Positions 2,326 through 32,368 of a stretch of 64,000 bases of DNA are shown here, in pieces (positions within the stretch are counted from its first letter, which is position 1; the number at the start of each line of letters is the position of its first letter). The stretch is from a virus. The translations under genes were made by a program, and so were the position numbers. Location: UHGV virus genome UHGV-0010228; one strand, 5' to 3'. The notes beneath the pieces are model-generated. The model saw only the letters and a program-made list of their open reading frames with translations. It was not told the DNA's origin and ran no database searches.

Positions 2326-4394
2326 TTGAAAGGAGGAGCTGAAATGATTGATATTAGTATGGAAGCGGTTATTAATCCTGAACCAGAAGATGGATCAGAA
2401 CCAATTCCTATGCAAATTGAATTAATAACTGATGCTATGATCACTAAAGCTAAATTAAAACCGGTTACTAATCCGATCTCATTTGTTCGTGGATCAGAAC
2501 CAACTCCTGATGGAATATTTTCAGAAGAAATATTTGGTAGTGATACCGCTAGTAGATCTAGACAGTTTGCATATATAGATCTACATCAGAAATTTTTCCA
2601 ACCATATGTATATGAAGTAATAAAAACCCTTGATCGTAAAATCGATAAGGTTGCATCTGGTAAAGGATATTGGCACATCAATGGTAGAGGTGAATTGATT
2701 GAGATTAAAGATCCGAAAGATTCACGATATGATGAGATGGCTACTGGATTAAATTGGGTTATTGAAAATTTTGATAAGATTAAATTTAAGACATCAGATG
2801 CAATAACTCGACAGGATAAACTTAGGTTCCTTAAGAATATTTCGGATGAAGAAAAGTTTGTATCTAAATGGATCGTTATACCAGTTACTTATAGAAATTT
2901 TATTGAAAAGAATGGTAGAATGGCAGTAACTGATATAGATGATATTTATACAAAATTAATATCCTATACCAATGGTATAGGTAATGATCCATTTGATTAC
3001 ATGAATAATCAATTATTATATAATATCCAGATGGAATTAGTAAAACTCCGTAAGTTAGGCGGAGATCTTATTAGAGGTAAGCATGGTTTTATGCATAAAG
3101 CTATGCTAGGTAAATCTACAGATTTAGGAGTCAGAGATGTTATATCTCAGATGTCTCTAAATCATTGTGAACGTCCGGAGGATAATCCTGTGGATATATT
3201 TCATAGTGGAGTACCATTAAGTAAATGCCTAGTATTAGGATATAACTTTATACTGAAATGGTGCTTAGATTTCTTCGAAAATAATTTCAAAGATAAAAAA
3301 GAACTTATAGTTTTTAAAGAAAAAGATGGTGTAAGAACTGAAAAACAAAAAATACCTATAAAGGATCAAACTATAATTTATACTAAATCGTTTTTAGATA
3401 AAAAGATTAAGCAATATCAGAACACACCAGCTATAAGATTCGATCCTATCGTGTTATATACAATAGATGGGAATGAACTCCCATTAACATTTGTAGGGTC
3501 ATTCGGTTCTATTAATAGTAGGGATATTGATGCAGCATCAATATCTAGAAGAAATATGACATGGACAGATTTGTTTTATATGGCTGCAATGGATACAATT
3601 TCGGATAAATATATATATTCAACTAGATTCCCAATAACGAGTTATAGTTCAATATTTCCGTCACTTTGTACTCCATTAACAACTATAAAAACGATACCTG
3701 CAATAATAAATAATCGAGTATATCCGAATTATCCATATGTAGAATTAGATATTGATAAAGGTGATATAGTTACTAGATTTATAGATACATTATGCATCAG
3801 TGATTTATTCCTTGATGCAATAGGCGGCGACTGGACTGCCATCATGGTCGCCTACAGTAGTAATACTGTACAAGAAAAGTCAGGTGAACTCCTAACCAGA
3901 GGTGTCTATCAGATGATAGGCTAACGGTCGAAGTTAGATAAGTATGTATACATATCCTAGCCAGATATGGTCCTGTTATATTATAACAGTATATAACGAA
4001 TACGCTTCTTAAGAGAGTCTAAGGTCCAGTTTATATTGGATAGCTTTGAGAATACCGTGCCAAGACTTGATATTATTCAAGTAAGGTGTAGAGACTAATA
4101 GTAGAATATGAGATGGAAAAGCTCATATACGAAGTGCCAGACCACCCCCACTATTTTATATAATAGAGGGTGAATGAGATAGTCCACATAGAGTTTTCTC
4201 TCGAGAATCCTCGAAAGTAATGACGGCGATACGATGAGTAGTAAGTTAGTTTTTTCATTAGAAGCTAATGAAGAAGCTAGGGCACTTGCTGAATCATTAT
4301 CTAATTTTGTATCAGCAGACGGATCGTTAATTAGGAATGTAAAAAATGAAGCTTTCTTATGTTTCTATAATATGACCAGAACTGATAGAGCATA
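2326..4394 (+). CDS. multisubunit RNA polymerase beta-prime-like subunit, N-terminal fragment, interrupted by a group I intron (exon 1 about 2326-3823, exon 2 about 4222-4394)
   Basis: Exon 1 contains GKHGFMHKAMLGKSTDLGVRDVIS, which matches the beta-prime signature [22 protein letters not shown]. It ends FLDAIGGD. After a stop-filled region of about 400 nt, an in-frame stretch with no start codon or RBS encodes DGDTMSSKLVFSLEANEEARALAESLSNFVSADGSLIRNVKNEAFLCFYNMTRTD. That aligns with E. coli beta-prime [59 protein letters not shown]. Confidence 0.7.
3824..4221 (+). other. group I self-splicing intron (about 400 nt, no internal ORF or homing endonuclease) in the beta-prime-like gene
   Basis: The region has higher GC and no ORF. 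It contains agAGACUAAUAG (4091-4102; R-like element with the P7 5' strand GACUA) and GAGAUAGUCC (4175-4185; S-like element with the P7 3' strand UAGUC, as in Tetrahymena AAGAUAUAGUCGG). A P9-like hairpin tctcgag-aatc-ctcgaaa lies near the 3' end, and a G at 4221/4222 precedes exon 2. Exon junctions are uncertain by a few nt because ggcggcgac and gacggcgat flank the two ends. Confidence 0.6.
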
Positions 4395-16267: not shown

Positions 16268-17386
16268 ATGTTTGATTTATATAATACATTAGAATCATAT
16301 AATATAATAGATAATGATTATGCATATGAAGGTATTATAGATAAAGTAAAAAATGTAGGTAGTACTATATGGGGATGGTTAAAGAAAATATGGGAAACTA
16401 TAACGAATAAATTAGGAGAATTAGGTAAAAAGATAAAGAAAGCGTGGGAATCTGTTAAAAACTTTATTAAAAATAGAGGAAATAAATCAATAGAAGAAGA
16501 AGATGAAGAAGAACCATATCCAGAAGAAAATGATGAAGATAATTTATCTACTTCTACATCTAATAAATTTGCTAAAGGTAGAGGTAAGAATATAAATAGA
16601 AGAAGATTAAAAAGTGATGATAAAGAAGAAGATAAGTCAGTAGTTAAAAGTTTACCAGAGCCTGAAAAGACTAGTAGATATAAAAGTCCTAAATTAAAAG
16701 GCGGCAAAGTCACAGTAAATCCAGATCCAACCTCAGATGGAAATAAACCTAGAACTCGTATAGTGCGAGCTGGAAACGGTACAAATTATAATGCAATATT
16801 TCATCCAGATGGGAGTTTGAATAGAGAGTTAAATATAGCTATGAAGTTACTTTTAGAAGTGGCAACTCAGATTAATGTTAAATCTAAATGGTACAAAGAA
16901 TTATTATCAGTATATAGTGCTGAAGCAAAAATTGGTGATAAAGTTGGCGATGCAGAAGATCTTGAAGAAAAAACCAACAAAATGCTGCAAAATTCACCCA
17001 TAAATAATGAAGATATTGACGATTATTTAAATGATCTTGAAAATAAAATTTCAAATAAAGGTTATATTAGATTAACATCTAAAATTCCAGGAGTTGAAAA
17101 ATATTATCAAATGATATATACATCAATTTCGAAATTACAACAGTCAACTGGAGTTATATTGAATCAAATAAATAAAAAACTTGGTGAATTTAAAAGTAAA
17201 CATAGTAAATATGAATTTACGGCTAAGAATAGTAATGGCATAAATATGGAGTATATTCGCTTTAAAGGTAGTAAAAGTGGTTCTGATATTCATAAGAGTA
17301 TCCTTGATAATACTAAAAAACTTTCATCATTATATAGTCGTATCATAAGCATTACTTCTAAAATGATAATATCACCAAGCAAATAG
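16268..17386 (+). CDS. MFDLYNTLESYNII-leader family protein 1 (372 aa), putative packaged/internal virion protein with AYE|G processing motif
   Basis: The first 60 nt of the CDS are identical to the 17442-18293 gene and the first 41 nt to the 24128-24979 gene. Lys/Glu-rich middle region. Confidence 0.55.
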   Translation: MFDLYNTLESYNIIDNDYAYEGIIDKVKNVGSTIWGWLKKIWETITNKLGELGKKIKKAWESVKNFIKNRGNKSIEEEDEEEPYPEENDEDNLSTSTSNKFAKGRGKNINRRRLKSDDKEEDKSVVKSLPEPEKTSRYKSPKLKGGKVTVNPDPTSDGNKPRTRIVRAGNGTNYNAIFHPDGSLNRELNIAMKLLLEVATQINVKSKWYKELLSVYSAEAKIGDKVGDAEDLEEKTNKMLQNSPINNEDIDDYLNDLENKISNKGYIRLTSKIPGVEKYYQMIYTSISKLQQSTGVILNQINKKLGEFKSKHSKYEFTAKNSNGINMEYIRFKGSKSGSDIHKSILDNTKKLSSLYSRIISITSKMIISPSK

Positions 17387-17394
17387 ATTAATAA

Positions 17395-17440
17395 TATAAT
17401 AAATAGAATTACCTATATAGGTAATTCTATTTATTATATT
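17395..17440. terminator. bidirectional terminator
   Basis: Palindrome aataaatagaattacctatataggtaattctatttatt between convergent genes. Confidence 0.6.
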
Positions 17441-17441
17441 A

Positions 17442-18293
17442 TTAATCTACAACTTCAGCTTTGACATCAATTGGTTCATCACTAGTTACTTCTGCTCCAG
17501 ATAGATATTTTACAATATTAACAATTATCTGATAAGATTTTTTTAAATTATTTGAAATATTATTTATATGCTCAGTAGCATATTTATTGAATGCAGCATT
17601 GTAATCTTTAGAATTCTCAACTGTTTTATTGAAGTTAATTGATTGGACTACTTTCATATGAGCATCGCACACAGTATATTGATTGTGTAATACAGTACCA
17701 ATACTTTTTAAATTGTGTTCAGATAGCATATAATCATGTGGGGCCAATTTCAATTGCTCACTAACAACACTATACGCATGATCACATCTATCCTTATATT
17801 TACGAATATCTAACACAATATTTTTACTAGATGATTCACGAAGAGCATCCGATTCAACTTTATTGATAGGTACTTCCCCACCCGTGGATGGGTCTGATGT
17901 TTTTGTGATATATTTACAAATCCCTGCTAAATATTTATCTCCCCCAACTACAATTTTTAAATATTTAGCACTGAGATTAACCAATTTTATTATTTTCTTA
18001 CCAGCGTGAATCTTGTTCATCTGTGTACTAGCAATCTTTCTACCTATTTTAGTATTACTAAGTTTAGATTTTAGCGTGGTAATTCCAGTTTTTAATACAC
18101 TCATAATCTTTTTTATAATACCAGCAATAAAACCAACTGCTCTATCTATTATTTTAGCAATTTTTGATGATGCGATCTTAGTTAATTTACCACTTGCAGC
18201 TCTAGCATCGTTATCAATTTCTAAATACCTTTCATATGCATAATCATTATCTATTATATTATATGATTCTAATGTATTATATAAATCAAACAT
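17442..18293 (-). CDS. MFDLYNTLESYNII-leader family protein 2 (283 aa)
   Basis: The N-terminal 20 aa are identical at the nucleotide level to family member 1. The motif is AYE|R. Confidence 0.55.
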   Translation of the reverse strand: MFDLYNTLESYNIIDNDYAYERYLEIDNDARAASGKLTKIASSKIAKIIDRAVGFIAGIIKKIMSVLKTGITTLKSKLSNTKIGRKIASTQMNKIHAGKKIIKLVNLSAKYLKIVVGGDKYLAGICKYITKTSDPSTGGEVPINKVESDALRESSSKNIVLDIRKYKDRCDHAYSVVSEQLKLAPHDYMLSEHNLKSIGTVLHNQYTVCDAHMKVVQSINFNKTVENSKDYNAAFNKYATEHINNISNNLKKSYQIIVNIVKYLSGAEVTSDEPIDVKAEVVD

Positions 18294-18349
18294 TATAATA
18301 CCTCCTTATATTATATATAATATTAATATAATGTATAATAAAAAAAAAA

Positions 18350-18385
18350 CAAATGGTCTATTAATAGACCATTTGTTTAAATTTA
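18350..18385 (-). terminator. rho-independent terminator (hairpin caaatggtctattaatagaccatttg plus T10 on the minus strand)
   Basis: Hairpin followed by a T-run when read on the minus strand, downstream of gene 18388-19086. Confidence 0.6.
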
Positions 18386-18387
18386 CT

Positions 18388-19086
18388 CTAAGCTAATAAC
18401 CTAGAAGGATCCTTAGTACCACCAGTTATAATAACCATTGACTTACTAAGGAATGAAATTCCGGCAGTAATTGATTTTTTAATATATCCGATATATGCAG
18501 TTAAGTTATGACTATCATTTGACTCATTGTATGAACGCTTAGCCTGAACAGCTTTTGTTAAAGTACTTTCAATTGTAGAATCTAAGCTACTAAGAGTCTG
18601 GATACCACTTGAAATTGCAGCTGCAAACTTATCTAAACGTGCAGGTGAATATACATTATTAGCAGTTCTCTTACCAACTTTTTCTCCTAATTCATTCATT
18701 GAGGTTATGTAATTAGAAATTTTATCTCCATAATCTTTTGCATTATCCGCAAAATTCTTACCAGACTTTAATCTACCACTAACAGCCTTAATAGAACCAG
18801 AAATTAACTTTACACCTTTAAGTGACATCTCAACATACTTAATTGGTGCTTTATCATTAATCTTTTCCTGAATCTTAGTTCCGATCTTAGTACTCTTAAG
18901 CTTATTGCTTAATTTGCTAAATTTTTCCTTTAATCCGTTAATTCTGTCTCTGAACCATTTCATTACTGCGGCAACAACTTTATTACTTTTAATTGCAGAA
19001 CCTGCATTAGAAAGTTTATCTTTAATTCCTTCTTCTGCAAGATCGATCTTATAAGATTCTAAAGTTTCAATTACATCGAACATCAT
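18388..19086 (-). CDS. MMFDVIETLESY-leader family protein 3 (232 aa), diverged paralogue
   Basis: N-terminus MMFDVIETLESYKIDLAEE|G. The body has the same predicted helical character as the other members. Confidence 0.5.
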   Translation of the reverse strand: MMFDVIETLESYKIDLAEEGIKDKLSNAGSAIKSNKVVAAVMKWFRDRINGLKEKFSKLSNKLKSTKIGTKIQEKINDKAPIKYVEMSLKGVKLISGSIKAVSGRLKSGKNFADNAKDYGDKISNYITSMNELGEKVGKRTANNVYSPARLDKFAAAISSGIQTLSSLDSTIESTLTKAVQAKRSYNESNDSHNLTAYIGYIKKSITAGISFLSKSMVIITGGTKDPSRLLA

Positions 19087-22326: not shown

Positions 22327-22896
22327 ATGTTTGATCTATATAATACACTTGTTGCATATGAGGGATTATTAAAGAATGCATATAATAGTTATAAAACTAA
22401 TATAAACAATGCAAATCTTATGCGAAAAATCGAGAAAACTATTGAAAAGTCATCTGAGTTTTATTTGAAGTTTATTGGTGAGGGTGATGATAAAACTAAA
22501 GAGGAAGCTGCTAATTTTTTTGAAAAGTGGGCACAATTATGTTACTCCAATACGATTAAATTTAATAAATCAATATTTTTAAAAGGATATGTAAATAAAT
22601 ATGAGTATTTACTAAAGGGTGGATATGCTGAACGATATGGATTAACATCTGAAACCCAATTAAATCCGGATAATCCCATGATGCAAGATATATTAAATGA
22701 TGCTTATCTTGGAATTATTGAAAAGCTATCATATAAAGGTCAACTTGTATATCTCATGGGCACTCCAGATAACTATATTTATTACTTTACTGATGATAAA
22801 GGAAATTTTGTCATGAAATATAATGATGAAATGTTGGATGAAATTATAAAGTACTATCAGAATAATATTGATGAGTATAATGCAAAGTTCAAATAA
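22327..22896 (+). CDS. MFDLYNTL-leader family protein 4 (189 aa; MFDLYNTLVAYE|G)
   Basis: Shared N-terminal motif and a variant of the promoter cassette. Confidence 0.5.
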   Translation: MFDLYNTLVAYEGLLKNAYNSYKTNINNANLMRKIEKTIEKSSEFYLKFIGEGDDKTKEEAANFFEKWAQLCYSNTIKFNKSIFLKGYVNKYEYLLKGGYAERYGLTSETQLNPDNPMMQDILNDAYLGIIEKLSYKGQLVYLMGTPDNYIYYFTDDKGNFVMKYNDEMLDEIIKYYQNNIDEYNAKFK

Positions 22897-22910
22897 AGGA
22901 GGTATTATAT

Positions 22911-23405
22911 ATGAATGATATAATAGTAATGGAAGGATTAATTTCTAAAATGAGAAATCGTTTAAAATTGAAAAAGATTAAAAAGAATTCTGCACCTTAT
23001 AAAGAAATAACTCATGATGAATTTATAAAAAATTATTTAAATAAAATTAAAAAATGCCAAAATTTAATGTGGACAAATATGATGAAATTAAAATCGAAGT
23101 ATCCTATGATAACTAAAATGATTTCTAAGCGTAGTGATAATGAAATGATAGTTCCGGTAAATGATGTTCATATAAACACTTATGTGTATTTAATAGATTA
23201 TGATGGATCAAATGTTGAATCACATGAGAAGCAATATTCAAATTTTGATAGATCTGAATTAGAACCAGCTCTATCAGAAATTGCTAAGGAATGTGTTGAT
23301 AAAATATTTGGTAATGATTCAAATATTGGTTATGATGAAGGTGGAGATTATAAAGAAGTCTGCTATGGAATTGTATTTAGAGATACTTTTATACATGTAA
23401 ATTAA
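22911..23405 (+). CDS. MNDIIVMEG|LI-leader family protein A (164 aa)
   Basis: N-terminus shared with the convergent gene 23457-24032. Confidence 0.5.
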   Translation: MNDIIVMEGLISKMRNRLKLKKIKKNSAPYKEITHDEFIKNYLNKIKKCQNLMWTNMMKLKSKYPMITKMISKRSDNEMIVPVNDVHINTYVYLIDYDGSNVESHEKQYSNFDRSELEPALSEIAKECVDKIFGNDSNIGYDEGGDYKEVCYGIVFRDTFIHVN

Positions 23406-23410
23406 TAATA

Positions 23411-23456
23411 TATAACGTTTAGTGATATTTATCACTAAACGTTATATATTATTAAT
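23411..23456. terminator. bidirectional terminator
   Basis: Palindrome aatatataacgtttagtgatatttatcactaaacgttatatatt. Confidence 0.6.
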
Positions 23457-24032
23457 TTAGTTTCTTTTTCCATATAAGATCTCGGACAATTCATCTGAAC
23501 CCATATTCGGAATTTGAATCACAAGAGGGCCACCATCCCAATCTCCACCATATTCGTATTTCATATTATCGATACCATATTTATCAATTGCCGATTCAAT
23601 AATCATATCAATTGCTTTCCACGTCTGATTATATCTAGGATCATCGCCCCATTCTCGAACATTTATAGATTTATCATATTTTAGTATTTCATAAATGTCA
23701 TAATCTATAATGGTATATTCAATATTATTGTCATATGTTGATAATACATTTTCGTTTTCGACATATCCAACTAATTTAAATATATATTTAGCTTCTGGGT
23801 ATTTCTTTATAAGATTATTATATTCTCTTTTAACTTCATTATATATCTTAATAAATATAGGTTTATATTTAGATCTAAATTCATCTAAAGATATATTTTT
23901 AATATTATTAGATTTAGAATTATTATTAATATATCTAGATTTAGTCTGATTATTAGTAGCGTAAGCCTTATTTTTATTTATTTTATCTCTTAATCTCTTT
24001 ATTAATCCTTCCATTACTATTATATCATTCAT
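23457..24032 (-). CDS. MNDIIVMEG|LI-leader family protein B (191 aa)
   Basis: Preceded on the minus strand by the same promoter cassette as the MFDLY genes. Confidence 0.5.
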   Translation of the reverse strand: MNDIIVMEGLIKRLRDKINKNKAYATNNQTKSRYINNNSKSNNIKNISLDEFRSKYKPIFIKIYNEVKREYNNLIKKYPEAKYIFKLVGYVENENVLSTYDNNIEYTIIDYDIYEILKYDKSINVREWGDDPRYNQTWKAIDMIIESAIDKYGIDNMKYEYGGDWDGGPLVIQIPNMGSDELSEILYGKRN

Positions 24033-24067
24033 ATATAATACCTCCTTATATTATATATAATATTAAT

Positions 24068-24100
24068 ATAATGTATAATAAAAAAACAAGTGAATGACTA
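24068..24100 (-). terminator. rho-independent terminator (gtgaatgactaatattagtcattcac plus T7 on the minus strand)
   Basis: Hairpin followed by a T-run, downstream of gene 24128-24979. Confidence 0.55.
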
Positions 24101-24127
24101 ATATTAGTCATTCACTATTATTAACTA

Positions 24128-24979
24128 TTATATTGCCATCATCTTTGCAATTTCATCTGGGTTAAGAATTTTAATTTTAGTCATAGTCGTAAGTGTCCAT
24201 TTACATAAATTTGAAATTTGTGCGGTTATATTTTTTAGCGCTTTAGTATATTCATCCGTTAATTCATGAATATTCTCAAATTTAGTTACTCGATTTTCAA
24301 TCACTTTAAATTCATATACACATTTCATTATATTTGTATATACAGCTTTATACTCATCGAGTGAATCGACTAAATCCACCTCAAGAGTAAAAGTGTCAAC
24401 TTCATCAAGAGCATTATTAAGTCTGTTAATAATTACTGGAGCTGACTTTGTATCATAATGAATAAGATAGTCTCTTACATCAGCTTCAAACTTTCCAGTT
24501 TTATATAATTCATTGGGATTATCTAAAAATTTTACATAATTTCGGGTATATTGAAGAGTTTCTCTTAGCCATTTATTTGTCTGTTTAAGTTCATACTTTA
24601 TTTTATCAGTCAAAGTTTTAATTTTTTCTTTCTCTTCTTTTCGAGTTCTTTCCACTTCATCAACTATATTACGTCTCTTTCTGTTATTTACTCTTTTTTG
24701 TTCATTCGGTTTATTATCTTCATTACCTCTAGTTTCACTCTCATTCATTTTTTCATTCGTCTTACCTTTCATATTCTTTATCATTAAATATACTTTCTTT
24801 ATCTTTCTACCTAATAATATAAATCCATTCTTTATTCCTTCCCATATCTTCTTTATAACAGACCATATACCTTTACCTACATTCTTTACTTTATCTATGA
24901 TACCTTCATAAGAGGGTTCTAATTCTCCCCCCCCCCCAATTATATTATATGATTCTAATGTATTATATAAATCAAACAT
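24128..24979 (-). CDS. MFDLYNTLESYNII-leader family protein 5 (283 aa) with a GGGG insertion encoded by a G11 tract
   Basis: The first 41 nt are identical to family member 1. DNDYAY is replaced by GGGGELEPSY, followed by the shared EGIIDKVKNVG. The gene is probably co-transcribed with the protease gene upstream. Confidence 0.55.
   Translation of the reverse strand: MFDLYNTLESYNIIGGGGELEPSYEGIIDKVKNVGKGIWSVIKKIWEGIKNGFILLGRKIKKVYLMIKNMKGKTNEKMNESETRGNEDNKPNEQKRVNNRKRRNIVDEVERTRKEEKEKIKTLTDKIKYELKQTNKWLRETLQYTRNYVKFLDNPNELYKTGKFEADVRDYLIHYDTKSAPVIINRLNNALDEVDTFTLEVDLVDSLDEYKAVYTNIMKCVYEFKVIENRVTKFENIHELTDEYTKALKNITAQISNLCKWTLTTMTKIKILNPDEIAKMMAI
24927..24937. repeat. C11/G11 homopolymer inside coding sequence (candidate slipped-strand contingency site)
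   Basis: Eleven consecutive C on the plus strand in a genome that is about 30% GC. They encode GGGG in the leader of gene 24128-24979. Confidence 0.6.
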
Positions 24980-27778: not shown

Positions 27779-28495
27779 ATGGGTTTAGTTAATGATTTTC
27801 TCTTTACTTACGCATTAGAAGCTGATGATATTACAGGAGAAGCTCAGGCTGGTGCTAGACAAATTGCCGGTGGACCAAATCCTGCCGGTGGACCAGGTGC
27901 TAATGCAAATGTTGGAGATGAACCAGATGACATATCTAAAACAGATGATATATTTGGTACTGCAGGATCAGATGATGATCCAATAAATGGAAATACTAAT
28001 AATGCTCAGAATTTAAATCAGAATCCACAAAATAATATGAATAATAATGATCCATTTGGTAATGATTCTAATAATATGGGAAATAATGATCCCAATGATG
28101 GTGGATTTGGTGATACAAATAATTCTTCGATGGATGATGGATTTGGAGAAAATAATGAGCAGGATAAATCCGATCCTCCATATTATGATAAGAATAAGTT
28201 AAAAAATAATATGCTGTATTTATACAATTTAACAAATTCATCAAATGATGCTATTGTAGAATTAAGATCAAAATTGAACGATCCTAGTAGTATCAAAGTA
28301 TGTAATATGGTAAATTCTAATTTAACTGCTCTTAGCGATTGTATATATGAAACAATTACTGATAAAATAGCTAATGCTACATATCAAGATATGCTTAGAG
28401 AGTATATATCATTTAAACGTATATATGACCTATGTACGGAAATAATGAATAAACATTTTGATAATGCGATTAAAGATAAGAAAAAGAAAAAATAA
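27779..28495 (+). CDS. hypothetical low-complexity (Gly/Asn/Asp-rich) protein with helical C-terminus; possible scaffold-like protein
   Basis: Composition, and its position directly upstream of an abundant structural-protein gene. Confidence 0.3.
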   Translation: MGLVNDFLFTYALEADDITGEAQAGARQIAGGPNPAGGPGANANVGDEPDDISKTDDIFGTAGSDDDPINGNTNNAQNLNQNPQNNMNNNDPFGNDSNNMGNNDPNDGGFGDTNNSSMDDGFGENNEQDKSDPPYYDKNKLKNNMLYLYNLTNSSNDAIVELRSKLNDPSSIKVCNMVNSNLTALSDCIYETITDKIANATYQDMLREYISFKRIYDLCTEIMNKHFDNAIKDKKKKK

Positions 28496-28600
28496 CGCAT
28501 CGTTAATCCACGTTATTTTAAAACGTGGATTAATACTATTAACAATAAAATAAAATTATTTAGCAAATTAATAGTTAAAAATAAAAGGAGGAAACTCTCA

Positions 28601-30358
28601 ATGTTAGATAAGACAATTTATAATGACGTTGTAGGTAATGCTCAGTATGCAGATTCAGATGCTGGGTTTAAGTCAGAAGTTAGATCAATCTTCGAAGCAT
28701 ATGCTAATGAAGGTGTTAACCTGACTGACAATATCGGATCTGTAATTTCAGATGCACATCTTAGAGAAGACTTCATAGGTTCTATCTGCGAATCACTCGC
28801 AGCTTCACCTCTCTTCACTAATGCTGATGCTGCAAATGCACCTTTCTATAACAACTATGGTGCAAGAGTTGAGCAGTTACTTAGCAACACACTTAAGTCT
28901 GTAGCTGCAGAATCTGTAATGTATGGTTATGCTCCTATCGTTGCATACAACCCATTCTTCCTCAAGAAGCAGTGGATCGATTGTATCTTCAAGGATGTCC
29001 TCATGACAGAAATTCCTAAGACTCCAGTTATCAATCTCGGTTTCGAGAGAAGATATCTTAAGGATCTTGATGGTGAAAGATATCCACTTCCAGAAGCTCT
29101 CTATGATGATGAAATCGTAAAGAAGCTCATGGATGCATCAACTGGTCTTAACCTTACAGAAGAAGCAATTGATATTAATGATTGTAAGCAGCTTTATCTT
29201 ATAGATCAGAAGTATATCCCAGGCGTTAATGTAAATGATAAGTCAGTAGAAATCACTCCAAATATTTGTGTTTGGAAGGTTATGCTTGCTGGTGCAGATG
29301 GCGAAATCGAACTTCCGGTAAACATGACAGTTGATGTTACTACTCATAACTTCATTAATACTTCAATCAAGTTTGATGTAAAGGATGAAACTACTGGTGA
29401 AGTTAAGGAAACAATTGAAGATCAGCTCGTTGGTCATATGAACTTCAGAGATGCTAAGCTCACTCTTATGTCAACAACTGGTAAGGTTACAAAGGTATTC
29501 CTTAGAGGTAAAATTGCAAATAGATGGAACCAGAGATCACTGGATGTAGAAAGAACTGTAGAACACATTCAGAAGACAATGCCAGAATCTGGTCCAAGAC
29601 TGAACTCTTCAATCACTGTTGAAGATGCTGCAGATGCACTTGCTCTTCAGAATATTGACCAGATCTCAGATAACATCAATATCATGGGTGCTACTCTGGC
29701 TAACCTGGAAGATGCTGAAATTAATATGTTCCTTAAGAACTCATTTGAAGCTCAGAAGAAGGTTGCTGAAACAGGCGTTCTTTACAATGAACTTGGTGAT
29801 AATGTAATGATCGCTGAAGGTAACTTCAATACTCTTCCATATGAAACATTCAATGGTAGAATTTCTGAATGGCAGAAGGATGCAAGAGAATACTTCGAAA
29901 GAATGCTCTCTGCTCTTAAGATTAAGCTCCGTTCTCAGAATATGCTCTTCGTTGCAGTTTCACATCCAAATACTGTTAGATATCTCCAGGATGGTATCAA
30001 CTGGGTATTCTCAGATGACACTCAGATCGGCGGTGTAAGACTTAACTATAACTTTGGTATTTACACAACTGCACAGGATAGAGTTCATATCGTAACAACT
30101 CAGAGAATGGCTGAATCTGAAGGTATTAGATTCATTGGTATCCCTCTGACTCAGGAACTCATCACATTCAAGCACTATAAGTACAATGTAATTATTGATA
30201 GAGGATACAGAAACCCTCTGACTCCTCTCACTCCAAATATTATGGCTACTCAGAGAACTCTCACATTTGAAATATTCCCAGTTCAGGGTGTAATGACAAT
30301 TGAGGGTAGAGAACTCTTCTCACCTGATAGCCTTAAGAGAAAGACTGTTACGCCCTAA
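28601..30358 (+). CDS. abundant virion structural protein (585 aa), candidate major capsid protein; ends at the CCC_UAA +1 shift site
   Basis: Codon usage shifts to aag/ttc/atc/ctc codons, typical of highly expressed genes. Strong aaaaggagg RBS. Confidence 0.45.
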   Translation: MLDKTIYNDVVGNAQYADSDAGFKSEVRSIFEAYANEGVNLTDNIGSVISDAHLREDFIGSICESLAASPLFTNADAANAPFYNNYGARVEQLLSNTLKSVAAESVMYGYAPIVAYNPFFLKKQWIDCIFKDVLMTEIPKTPVINLGFERRYLKDLDGERYPLPEALYDDEIVKKLMDASTGLNLTEEAIDINDCKQLYLIDQKYIPGVNVNDKSVEITPNICVWKVMLAGADGEIELPVNMTVDVTTHNFINTSIKFDVKDETTGEVKETIEDQLVGHMNFRDAKLTLMSTTGKVTKVFLRGKIANRWNQRSLDVERTVEHIQKTMPESGPRLNSSITVEDAADALALQNIDQISDNINIMGATLANLEDAEINMFLKNSFEAQKKVAETGVLYNELGDNVMIAEGNFNTLPYETFNGRISEWQKDAREYFERMLSALKIKLRSQNMLFVAVSHPNTVRYLQDGINWVFSDDTQIGGVRLNYNFGIYTTAQDRVHIVTTQRMAESEGIRFIGIPLTQELITFKHYKYNVIIDRGYRNPLTPLTPNIMATQRTLTFEIFPVQGVMTIEGRELFSPDSLKRKTVTP

Positions 30359-30359
30359 C
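30353..30359 (+). promoter_or_regulatory. candidate programmed +1 translational frameshift site CCC_UAA_C
   Basis: The last sense codon CCC (Pro) sits before the UAA stop. The +1 frame continues directly as NPPVDPDPTPSNPDTSA, a Pro-rich linker, with no RBS or ATG. The topology matches the CCC_UGA +1 shifts in the Listeria phage PSA cps and tsh genes. Confidence 0.5.
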
Positions 30360-31448
30360 CCGCCAGTAGACCCAGATCCAACGCCAAGCAACCCAGATAC
30401 TTCTGCAATGGTTGATGGTACAGAATACGGTACTGTACAGGAGGCGTTAGATGCAGTGGAAGCTGGCAAACCAGTAACCGTAAAGCTCTTCAAGGATACT
30501 GAAACTCCAGTTACAGTAAAGAAGGGTACAAATGTAACACTTGATCTCAATGATACTCTTATGACTGGTACTACAGATGCTGCTATTACAGTAGAAGATG
30601 GTGCCGAATTAACAATTAAGGGTACAGGTATAATTGATGCTGGTACAGCACCTAAGAAAGCGGCAATTGTAAACAAGGGTACAATGTCTATTCTCGGTGG
30701 TACAATTACTAGATCAGAAGAAACTGGTACTGCTTCAAACGTATCAGGAAAGAATAGCTACTATGCTATATATAATACAGGTACTATCAAAGAAATTGGT
30801 AAGGATGCCGTAATCACAAATACTTCAGGTTATTCTTCACTCATTTGCTGTATAGGTACAGCAGATAAGCCTGCTAGAATTGATAAGATTACTGGCGGTA
30901 GATTTACTAATAACTTCGTAGTACTTAAGATGGATGATTATTCATCTCTCGGAGAAATTAGTGGCGGTACATTCATTAATAACCAGGATGACTTTAATAA
31001 GGGTCCATCTGCTACAATCTTAGCATATGGTCCAATTGATAAGATCAGTGGTGGTACATTTGAATGTAAGGCTGAAACACCTGTAAAGGTATTTGGTTAC
31101 TATGACACATCTGCAAAGGTTTGTCAGACAGGTGTAATTAAGGAAATAACTGGTGGTACATTCAAGACTGGTCTCATGGAAACATGTGGATCATTATCTG
31201 CATCAGTACATCCGGTTAGCATTAATGATATTGATAAGTTTACAGACTTACCATCTGTTAAATCAATTACTGGTGGTACATTCATTGGTAATGTATTTAC
31301 AGAAAACGGTGGTGTTATTGAAGGTATTGCTGGAGGTTCATTCACTCTTAGAGATGCTGAGTCTGAAAAGGCTATGGAAGCATTCTTAAAGGACGGATGT
31401 AAACTTTCAGGTGGTAACGACAATAAGTGGACTGTTGCTCTCGGATAA
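30357..31448 (+). CDS. C-terminal extension domain (about 364 aa), reached by +1 frameshift from the upstream gene or by internal initiation at 30408; beta-helix-like repeats (I[ST]GGTF)
   Basis: Repeated motifs KITGGRF, EISGGTF, KISGGTF, EITGGTF, SITGGTF and IAGGSF recur at intervals of about 20-25 residues. Confidence 0.5.
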   Translation, partial: NPPVDPDPTPSNPDTSAMVDGTEYGTVQEALDAVEAGKPVTVKLFKDTETPVTVKKGTNVTLDLNDTLMTGTTDAAITVEDGAELTIKGTGIIDAGTAPKKAAIVNKGTMSILGGTITRSEETGTASNVSGKNSYYAIYNTGTIKEIGKDAVITNTSGYSSLICCIGTADKPARIDKITGGRFTNNFVVLKMDDYSSLGEISGGTFINNQDDFNKGPSATILAYGPIDKISGGTFECKAETPVKVFGYYDTSAKVCQTGVIKEITGGTFKTGLMETCGSLSASVHPVSINDIDKFTDLPSVKSITGGTFIGNVFTENGGVIEGIAGGSFTLRDAESEKAMEAFLKDGCKLSGGNDNKWTVALG

Positions 31449-31454
31449 ATAAAA

Positions 31455-31495
31455 AATAAAGATAGAATGAGGAAATCCTCATTCTATCTTTTTAT
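31455..31495. terminator. bidirectional terminator
   Basis: Hairpin aagatagaatgaggaaatcctcattctatctt with flanking A and T runs. Confidence 0.6.
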
Positions 31496-31504
31496 CTTAT
31501 AGAT

Positions 31505-31723
31505 TTACAGCAAATAGCATATTCCTAATAATATACAAAATGCTGTACAGAAAATATACCATCCATTACAATAATACAATTTAGGATTATTAGCTATATT
31601 TTCTTTATCTACAAATTTTATAAGTATAATAGATGTTAACCATCTAAATGACTTATAAAATGATATAAATACGATCACTGCAATTATTAAATAGCAAGTT
31701 AATACTATTAATAGAGATGCCAT
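31505..31723 (-). CDS. small membrane protein (72 aa, 2 TM)
   Basis: Hydrophobic ORF. Confidence 0.4.
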   Translation of the reverse strand: MASLLIVLTCYLIIAVIVFISFYKSFRWLTSIILIKFVDKENIANNPKLYYCNGWYIFCTAFCILLGICYLL

Positions 31724-31989
31724 TACTCTTCCCCTCCATTGATCATTTCAGAAATAGCCTCAGCTAATTTATTTACCTCATGCATATATCTATCAGTTTC
31801 TCTAGGCATATGTATTGATGGTAATGACGAATCCAATGGTATTACAGAATAGTGATCATATTCTGCAACCACAGTAAAGAATTTACCACCAACACTAATG
31901 TTGAAGGTAGATCCTGGTGCGTTGGCAATACCAACCTTTAATGAACTAAGTGCTGCGCCGTACATTCCATCTTTAGATGACTTACTCAT
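31723..31989 (-). CDS. hypothetical protein (88 aa)
   Basis: ORF with ggaggaa RBS. Confidence 0.4.
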   Translation of the reverse strand: MSKSSKDGMYGAALSSLKVGIANAPGSTFNISVGGKFFTVVAEYDHYSVIPLDSSLPSIHMPRETDRYMHEVNKLAEAISEMINGGEE

Positions 31990-32368
31990 AATTTAATTCC
32001 TCCTTATGAGATTCTCTATATAAAGCATTAACTATTTCATGACATATTGCAATTATATCTGGAATTTTAGTACTTCTTCTAATAAAAGCTAATGGACCTT
32101 TGAATTTATATTTTCTTCCAGATCTAACTGCATATATATCGCTATAACTATAATAAATATTGATATGTGATCCAAATATTACAGCTTTTACTTCTTTAAT
32201 ATTTGGATCTAATATTCCTTTATTAGCATAAGGAAATGTTTCCTCATATAATAATCGCTTTTCAATATTACAATCTTCAGGATAGTATCGTAAAGCATTT
32301 TCATAAATAGTTTCTTTTTCAAACATCATAGTTTCTTCTCCTTTACTATTATAACTGTATTTATTCAT
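31982..32368 (-). CDS. hypothetical protein (128 aa)
   Basis: ORF. Confidence 0.4.
   Translation of the reverse strand: MNKYSYNSKGEETMMFEKETIYENALRYYPEDCNIEKRLLYEETFPYANKGILDPNIKEVKAVIFGSHINIYYSYSDIYAVRSGRKYKFKGPLAFIRRSTKIPDIIAICHEIVNALYRESHKEELNYE

Follow-up and report, generated by a model that had tools for sequence, protein, structure and literature searches.

We analyzed a 64,000-nucleotide (nt) stretch of the virus genome UHGV-0010228 (the window), in which the major capsid protein (MCP) gene ends in CCC_TAA and is followed, in the +1 frame, by a reading frame for a beta-helix domain. We consider it likely that the two form one recoded gene, in which a +1 shifty-stop frameshift at CCC_UAA fuses the MCP to the beta-helix extension. 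This interpretation, first proposed from the DNA letters alone (the original prediction), is supported by the rare CCC next to the stop codon, a +1 open reading frame (ORF) lacking a start codon and Shine-Dalgarno (SD) sequence of its own, a linker that looks like coding DNA, the absence of an intervening terminator, conservation among strains, purifying selection, and the beta-helix fold of the extension.

The 3' end of the MCP gene (30341 to 30359) reads ...aag act gtt acg CCC TAA c, with CCC at 30353 to 30355, TAA at 30356 to 30358, and KTVTP as the last encoded residues; the original prediction had described VTP-stop, encoded by acg ccc taa c, as the end of a 585-amino-acid (aa) gene at 28601 to 30358. 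The +1 frame is open from 30297 to a stop codon at 31446 to 31448, and the nearest +1-frame stop codon upstream is at 30294. From the shift point, this frame reads NPPVDPDPTPSNPDTSA and then MVDGTEYGTVQEALDAVEAGK..., for a total of 363 aa. It thus continues directly as a Pro-rich linker, as had been claimed (17 codons, 30357 to 30407), and the claim of a repeat-built extension was borne out by seven I-x-GG-x-[FI] repeats within the 363-aa reading. The downstream frame had also been said to have no ribosome-binding site and a first ATG at 30408; this ATG lies at the end of the linker, and the sequence upstream of it pairs with the anti-SD sequence at only +0.4 kcal/mol. The features are collected in Table 1.

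If the frameshift occurs, a single mRNA with the single ribosome-binding site at 28586 to 28591 would serve both ORFs. Most ribosomes would terminate at the TAA beginning at 30356 and release the 585-aa, 66-kDa MCP. A minority would pause with peptidyl-tRNA-Pro on the rare CCC and TAA in the A site; the tRNA-Pro would then slip one base forward onto CCT (30354 to 30356), and the next codon read would be AAC (30357 to 30359), followed by CCG, CCA, and so on. The product would be a 948-aa protein of ∼104 kDa consisting of the MCP, a flexible 17-aa Pro-rich linker, and a 346-aa beta-helix, with TVTPNPPVDPDPTPSNPDTSAMVDGTEYGTVQEALDAVEAGK as the predicted tryptic junction peptide. The computed masses of the two forms before any prohead processing, 66.0 and 103.7 kDa, agree with the ∼65 and 105 kDa originally predicted. 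The minor fusion form would coassemble into a large, probably T=27, capsid and display a domain borrowed from host-type cell-surface proteins. We infer the translation of the extension by slipping, its efficiency, the entry of the fusion into virions, the outward position of the domain, and the function of the domain. Glycan or cell-surface binding would be the most likely role of a displayed beta-helix, and its activity would presumably be binding or glycan degrading.

The 585-aa protein, originally described as an abundant structural protein, is the MCP by homology. It matched phrog_20655 (“major head protein,” E=4.6e-39) and, over residues 87 to 569, PDB 7x30, a 27-chain capsid entry (E=3.9e-23); by tblastn, it was ∼24% identical to the MCPs of AR9, PBS1, S6, and phiR1-37 over 82 to 97% of its length. 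These matches identify it at the sequence level as an MCP of the HK97-fold type found in AR9/PBS1/S6-like jumbo phages. The window also encodes a multisubunit RNA polymerase (RNAP) beta subunit, a terminase large subunit, a tail sheath protein, and a head-tail joining protein, and together with the MCP, these genes mark the region as the structural module of an AR9/phiKZ-type jumbo myovirus. Multisubunit RNAPs are typical of AR9/phiKZ-type jumbo phages. The MCP family comprised 518 homologs at E≤1e-20, on contigs of 210 to 290 kb from human gut metagenomes, and the best 120 of these 518, all 581 to 606 aa long, contained no in-frame MCP-extension fusion.

The extension itself had no sequence match in Pfam, PHROG, or PDB. 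An AF2 model built from an alignment of 48 homologs had a predicted local distance difference test (pLDDT) score of 90.8 and a predicted template modeling (pTM) score of 0.90; about the first 16 residues were unstructured, and the remainder consisted of short beta-strands. The top Foldseek matches were all beta-helix proteins, namely, PL6 lyases, pectin methylesterases, the CBA120 tailspike, and the UpaB autotransporter, with TM scores of 0.3 to 0.5 and ∼10% identity. The extension is thus confidently modeled as a right-handed parallel beta-helix, a fold normally met in tailspikes and depolymerases.

The sequence homologs of the extension were bacterial cell-surface proteins with 30 to 38% identity, one of them named as coming from an Oscillospiraceae bacterium. 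In these proteins, a signal peptide is followed by a domain starting at the equivalent of VDGTEYGT and then by a C-terminal membrane anchor; unlike them, the phage extension has neither signal peptide nor anchor. Eight of the homologs (P0009, P0015, P0020, P0029, P0038, P0046, P0074, and P0077) share near-identical signal peptides (MKKILATILALV...) and C-terminal anchors (...SPKTFDAGVGIYAVTAVLSVTGMAWTAKKRH), and their beta-helix cores vary. From their sequences, the homologs look like a variable surface protein family of gut Oscillospiraceae-type Firmicutes, and this family may be a clue to the phage host. A search of 5.8 billion proteins with the extension returned only two strain variants and the bacterial homologs, and we found the extension in no deeper phage relative in IMG/VR, JGI metagenomes, or annotated phages.

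The codon context of the proposed shift site is consistent with slippage. CCC is the rarest Pro codon in the window (10 of 569, or 1.8%, versus 191 of 569 for CCT), and the sole CCC in the MCP gene is its final sense codon. At G_CCC_TAA, tRNA-Pro can re-pair forwards only, onto CCT. The hexamer CCC_TAA is identical to the site in gene 17.1 of phage SPP1, which reads gct CCC TAA tgc in the SPP1 genome and yields the same Pro-Asn junction. The site had been predicted as CCC_UAA_C; the CCC_TAA part held in all four strain haplotypes described below, and the following C did not, as strain L022 has CCC_TAA_T and so equals the SPP1 site at the next base too. There is no slippery heptamer in the window, and the 64 kb contain no tRNA genes, including none for tRNA-Pro. 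Transcriptional slippage was rejected because the overlap has no homopolymer runs, and read-through of the TAA was rejected because the zero frame meets a TGA after 18 codons.

We next compared the initiation signals of the extension with those of the other genes. A GGAG, GAGG, or AGGA core was present at -20 to -4 in 41 of the 50 window genes, and the median anti-SD pairing energy was -10.8 kcal/mol for genes and -0.4 kcal/mol for random positions. The extension has no conserved start codon with an SD sequence 5 to 10 nt away, as an independent gene would need; the only in-frame start that is preceded by an SD sequence, GTG 30456, is not conserved. The 49 nt between the MCP stop codon and ATG 30408 have a GC content of 0.571, against a mean of 0.284 for intergenic DNA. 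Among all 49-nt windows, only 0.14% are as GC rich, and no other intergenic window in the 64 kb is. In the +1 frame, these nucleotides encode the Pro-rich linker on the preferred CCA codon. Between positions 28300 and 32500, the only terminator-like site is the hairpin at 31458 to 31491, which begins 10 nt 3' of the extension, leaving none between the two ORFs. Relatives that lack the extension have a terminator hairpin immediately past the MCP stop codon.

An MCP identical to that of the window, always followed by the same overlapping ORF, was encoded on at least 22 contigs, which came from independent samples and assemblers. At least 11 loci resolved into four haplotypes: the window with L008, L009, and L016; L013 and L014; L010 to L012 and L015; and L022 and L023. 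No relative carries the extension as a separate gene, an arrangement that, without CCC_UAA, would have spoken against a frameshift, and every extension-bearing strain keeps CCC_TAA. Between haplotypes, the MCP has 20 to 54 synonymous and 0 to 4 nonsynonymous changes, with 50 and 0, respectively, in one comparison of strains, and the extension differs at up to 115 of 1,090 nt. In its own frame, these changes are 61 synonymous versus 54 nonsynonymous, compared with 6:109 and 5:110 in the other two frames. By this comparison, purifying selection acts on the extension in its own frame, which makes it a functional coding sequence rather than an error or pseudogene. The three substitutions at the junction are each silent in the frame expected under the shift: T30346G, 5' of CCC and the only change within the overlap, is synonymous for the MCP and replaces Leu by Arg in the +1 frame, and C30359T (in L022) and C30392T, 3' of CCC, both change AAC to AAT and are synonymous in the +1 frame.

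Sister lineages provided a second set of candidate recoding sites. The MCPs of L032/L033, L034, and L037/L038 are 62 to 92% identical to one another and ∼65% identical to the window MCP. The 177 to 200 nt from their MCP stop codons to the next called gene have a GC content of 48 to 55%, in loci of 37 to 38% GC, and each contains an uncalled ORF of 58 to 64 codons in the -1 frame after C_CCT_TAA. The ORF in L032 has no ATG, GTG, or TTG, and those in L034 and L037 have only internal ones. The encoded peptides are conserved at the protein level and end in ...LTLDKSVTLNGTNADKAQNFDQEV, ...LTVDKSAKIKGINAGIAQNFKQEV, and ...MTLNKSVTLNGANADVPQNFDQEV, each followed by a stop codon. Differences between L032 and L037 fall at codon positions 1, 2, and 3 of the -1 frame in a ratio of 16/9/27, and the ratio of synonymous to nonsynonymous changes is 18:34 in the -1 frame versus 9:43 and 3:49 in the others. 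At C_CCT_TAA, tRNA-Pro can re-pair backwards only, onto CCC. These -1 ORFs look like a -1 shifty-stop MCP extension that gene callers have left unannotated, and in L032 the shift would give the junction peptide NPLSGTTTSSTEAAGAVTNATDGATLNIAGGNVTDSLTLDK. Across 17 loci, long ORFs after the stop codon and GC-rich DNA after the stop codon (0.52 to 0.73 versus 0.13 to 0.35) occurred only in the G_CCC_TAA and C_CCT_TAA contexts, with the frame of the ORF matching the direction of possible re-pairing. We regard this match of context and direction as the strongest indirect evidence that the terminal Pro codon is a recoding site in the MCP family.

The counterpart of the -1 segment in another beta-helix protein is the N-terminal cap. 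In P0279 to P0282 (419 to 532 aa), the segment and the downstream domain are contiguous; in L039 (1819 to 3323) and L041 (1858 to 3308), the segment is the C terminus of an ordinary 248- to 257-aa protein, followed by a gene for the body of the domain. The split point of the beta-helix is shared: QN[FY][DK]QEV precedes a stop codon, with three additional codons in between in L041, and an ATG comes next; the SD sequence of the body gene (cAGGAGGt) overlaps the QEV codons. In L032 (4259 to 5355), the cap piece is on the MCP frame, and an in-frame TAA separates cap and body. From this arrangement, the MCP seems to replace the N-terminal protein of the split beta-helix in L032-type phages, and we speculate that the 306-aa body docks onto the MCP tail and thereby completes the split domain. 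Between the window extension and the L032-type segment and protein, the only match was an N-cap-like motif, and the segment and protein had no matches in Pfam and PDB. The gene of the contiguous homolog P0280 does not adjoin an MCP gene and was uninformative. A wider model, which we put forward tentatively as the less probable outcome, is a family-wide recoding hub in which the terminal Pro-stop of the capsid gene serves shifts in either direction that attach beta-helix modules to the shell: a +1 shift at G_CCC_UAA would fuse a whole beta-helix, and a -1 shift at C_CCU_UAA would add an ∼60-aa N-terminal cap tail on which the body encoded by the next gene would dock by domain complementation.

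A large share of the MCP homologs P0121 to P0240 end in Pro (...KRNP, ...KREP, ...ENP, ...TP, or ...GP), and several have variable tails rich in G, T, A, D, and P, of up to ∼22 aa, after an SP.TLKR motif. The terminal Pro seems to be ancestral in the MCP family and may predispose MCP genes to recoding. The closest outgroups of the window (56 to 73% identity) have no extension; in L017, a terminator separates the MCP gene from the head-tail joining gene. A 52-codon open +1 frame after the L017 MCP was dismissed as chance, as the terminator sits within it. The extension, together with the small reverse-strand genes behind it, is therefore an insertion specific to the lineage of the window.

The main competitor of the frameshift, which we regard as unlikely but deserving of attention, is a separate 346-aa, 36-kDa beta-helix protein translated from ATG 30408 by reinitiation or SD-independent initiation, with the linker as an untranslated remnant of the acquired domain. 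The free protein would start Met-Val-Asp-Gly, with the N-terminal peptide (M)VDGTEYGTVQEALDAVEAGK. This ATG encodes the first residue of the folded domain, the point at which the bacterial homologs begin after their signal peptide, and it lies only 50 nt past the stop codon of a very highly translated gene, where a degree of reinitiation could be imagined; in other members of the MCP family, the slot after the MCP holds genes for free-standing proteins, and no frameshift stimulator was found. However, the anti-SD pairing of ATG 30408 is at the level of random positions, and the codon is partly paired in a predicted local hairpin. The preferred Pro codons, 57% GC content, and exclusively +1-synonymous changes of the stretch between stop codon and ATG would be unexpected for untranslated DNA, given that spacers are 28% GC. 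A free beta-helix would also have no virion attachment module, and initiation at ATG 30408 leaves unexplained both the rare CCC and the start-less -1 ORFs of the relatives, of which that in L032 has no start codon at all. Reinitiation at ATG 30408 and the +1 shift could coexist.

Initiation further upstream, at TTG 30300, would make the extension an ordinary overlapping gene of 382 aa that overlaps the MCP gene by 59 nt and has the N terminus MRVENSSHLIALRER(L/R)LRPNPP. It gives the longest ORF, is the start in every public gene call, and has a weak GGGTG upstream that pairs at -4.1 kcal/mol, but this SD sequence is weaker than in 44 of the 50 genes and at the 10th percentile of random positions, and TTG is rare as a start codon in the window. 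It was probably chosen by default because no better start exists. The first 19 residues of the product would be dictated by the highly conserved coding sequence of the MCP C terminus, and T30346G, silent for the MCP, would be a missense change in them; we therefore hold this start to be very improbable. Internal initiation at GTG 30456 has strong SD pairing (-10.3 kcal/mol, from AGGAGG at 30439 to 30444) in its favor, but the spacing of 11 nt is longer than at any clear gene start in the window, the product would lose the conserved and confidently folded N-terminal cap, and AGGAGG is accounted for by Gln-Glu-Ala codons. The codon is GCG (Ala) in the haplotype of L010, L011, L012, and L015, which effectively refutes this start and leaves it a negligible chance. 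Within 30439 to 30458 of the window, after these Gln-Glu-Ala codons come an out-of-frame ATG at 30451, the start of an 8-codon ORF, and then the in-frame GTG. A single-base frame break beside a run of C is also the usual signature of an indel error, and the junction could in principle be a sequencing artifact or a decaying fusion with an untranslated pseudogene. The break recurs, however, on at least 22 independently sampled and assembled contigs and in four haplotypes, and purifying selection on the extension is clear despite ∼10% nucleotide divergence, so that an artifact or pseudogene is scarcely more credible than initiation at the GTG.

Several observations weigh against the frameshift or limit the case for it. 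The sequence upstream of the shift site, ttaagagaaagactgttacg, has no GGAGG-like element of the kind that stimulates the prfB frameshift from ∼3 nt upstream. UAA is recognized by both release factors, so the shift may be inefficient. In the relative L001 (2172 to 2177), the MCP gene ends in CCC_TGA and is followed by just five open +1 codons, a terminator, and no extension, so this kind of ending can arise incidentally; genes that end in a Pro codon are likewise frequent in the MCP family regardless of an extension. A 106-nt multibranch RNA fold is predicted at 30362 to 30467, starting 3 nt after the stop codon (-35.9 kcal/mol, z -2.7), and the same fold in L012 is more stable (-41.5 kcal/mol, z -3.6) through an A-to-U change that closes an A-A mismatch, but 12% of equal-size windows across the 64 kb reach z≤-2.68, so we gave the fold no weight. 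There was no distinctive stimulatory RNA fold at the junction in a search that did not extend to pseudoknots, and Rfam gave no family there, its sole match being a chance microRNA hit on the terminator. Because the extension is confined to one phage species, comparative power is limited to variation within that species: only three substitutions at the junction are informative, and the conservation of the site spans at most 10% nucleotide divergence. Finally, the MCP was poorly predicted (pLDDT 54.8), and the model cannot show whether its C terminus is exposed; the sole hint of exposure is that, past the conserved SP.TLKR motif, the MCPs of relatives end in low-complexity tails that vary and can be as long as ∼22 residues.

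C-terminal extension of major virion proteins by frameshifting at a rare CCC is already known. The exact precedent for the window site is SPP1 gp17.1/17.1*, in which gene 17.1 ends in CCCUAA, where ribosomes pause at the rare CCC and then shift onto the frequent CCU; gp17.1* gains 87 aa that form an FN3 domain related to cell-surface-binding proteins, and the two products occur in a 3:1 ratio (PMC6316719; PMC3082878). Phage Q54 is cited as a further case (PMC3082878). The two systems share the hexamer at the end of the gene for an abundant virion protein, the Pro-Asn junction, a low-GC Firmicute type of host with strong SD sites, and an added domain that resembles cell-surface-binding domains of the host. 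They differ in that SPP1 extends a tail tube protein by an 87-aa FN3 domain and the window extends a capsid protein by a 363-aa beta-helix, and both SPP1 products were demonstrated experimentally, whereas the fusion in the window is predicted.

The original prediction had instead named the CCC_UGA sites of the capsid and tail genes of Listeria phage PSA. This precedent stood for the tail gene tsh, where CCC_UGA is the +1 site in PSA, A118, and A500, but not for the PSA capsid gene cps, which shifts +1 at ACA_CCC_UCC before a pseudoknot; cps of A118 and A500 shifts -1 (PMC5009743). These phages resemble the window in having capsid and tail proteins that are C-terminally extended by a frameshift at a rare CCC in a low-GC host and in showing both shift directions among relatives (PMC5009743). 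They differ in that the shift in PSA cps does not involve a stop codon and needs the pseudoknot, the tsh stop codon is UGA and not UAA, and all are small siphoviruses. A C-terminal extension likewise occurs on a minority of the capsid subunits in T7 and T3 (gene 10A/10B) and in Lactobacillus phage A2 (PMC5009743). Unlike here, it is produced by -1 tandem slippage inside the gene, and the extensions are short or Ig-like. The mechanism of bacterial prfB (RF2) at CUU_UGA_C is also a shifty-stop +1 shift, with re-pairing of the P-site tRNA at a time when the A site contains a stop codon, but it depends on an SD-like stimulator 3 nt upstream and serves autoregulation, whereas the window has no such element and the purpose would be two products. 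The T7 capsid extension is exposed on the shell, as exploited in display. The decorations of T4 (Hoc), T5 (pb10), and N4 (Ig-like) also place a nonessential binding domain outside the capsid; those are separate, noncovalently bound, mostly Ig-like proteins, and the domain in the window would be a covalently attached beta-helix.

Table 1. Features of the MCP-extension locus (window coordinates) and -1-frame ORFs of sister lineages (coordinates of each locus)
Feature	Coordinates	Strand	Remarks
Shine-Dalgarno site AGGAGG of the MCP gene	28586..28591	+	9 nt 5' of the ATG
MCP gene, zero frame, 585 aa, 66.0 kDa	28601..30358	+	ends ...KTVTP-stop; homology to jumbo-phage MCPs
Overlap, 20 codons with the +1 frame open inside the MCP 3' end	30297..30356	+	includes TTG 30300
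Proposed shift site CCC_TAA_C	30353..30359	+	hexamer identical to the SPP1 17.1 site; kept in four haplotypes
+1-frame linker NPPVDPDPTPSNPDTSA, 17 codons, 57% GC, five CCA and one CCG	30357..30407	+	GC content, synonymous changes, unstructured in the AF2 model
Predicted right-handed parallel beta-helix domain, 346 aa plus stop, seven I-x-GG-x-F rungs	30408..31448	+	AF2, Foldseek, own-frame selection
Intrinsic terminator hairpin, 15-bp stem, bidirectional	31458..31491	+	ends the MCP-extension transcription unit
-1 ORF after the MCP stop, L032	4259-4434		
-1 ORF after the MCP stop, L033	4259-4434		
-1 ORF after the MCP stop, L034	4298-4497		
-1 ORF after the MCP stop, L037/L038	2425-2600		

Other genes of the window were noted in passing. 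Three small genes (72, 88, and 128 aa) lie on the minus strand at 31505 to 32368, between the extension and the head-tail joining gene; all three are absent from the closest outgroup, L017, and strain L022 has a single 90-aa gene there. From this variation, the region is a variable insertion slot adjoining the capsid gene. Directly 5' of the MCP gene, 27779 to 28495 encodes a 238-aa low-complexity protein with an extreme content of N, D, and G that matched no family; its position would suit a scaffold or internal head protein. For the RNAP beta-subunit homolog at 2326 to 3924 (phrog_2986, E=9e-68), the listed start is a TTG that lacks an SD sequence, and the true one is probably elsewhere. A paralogous gene family occupies both strands of 16268 to 19086 and 22327 to 24979. 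The N-terminal regions of the ORFs at 16268 (+), 17442 (-), 18388 (-), and 24128 (-) are 34 to 61% identical; those at 16268 (+), 17442 (-), and 24128 (-), and also that at 22327 (+), begin with ATGTTTGAT, and the SD regions of those at 16268 (+) and 17442 (-) are nearly identical. The ORFs at 22911 (+) and 23457 (-) form a second related pair.

What is new here is the setting in a jumbo-phage MCP, the size of the added domain (a 363-aa beta-helix versus Ig/FN3 domains of ∼90 aa), and the direction-matched +1 and -1 sites within one family. In the literature that we searched on related terms, there was no prior report of a frameshift-extended MCP in a jumbo phage. If the frameshift is real, this would be the first one found, and the domain would be by far the largest added by frameshifting, at 363 aa against roughly 90 aa for FN3-type domains such as the 87 aa of SPP1. 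All public gene calls use the spurious TTG start, and annotation pipelines therefore miss the proposed fusion here as well as the start-less -1 ORFs of relatives. One family with both +1 and -1 contexts, each matched to its direction, is a natural comparative system in which to study shifty-stop frameshifting at Pro codons in Firmicutes. A widespread phage of the human gut, found in Hadza and other gut metagenomes, would show a host-type cell-surface domain on its head, and such a domain would be relevant to adherence in the gut and to host finding.

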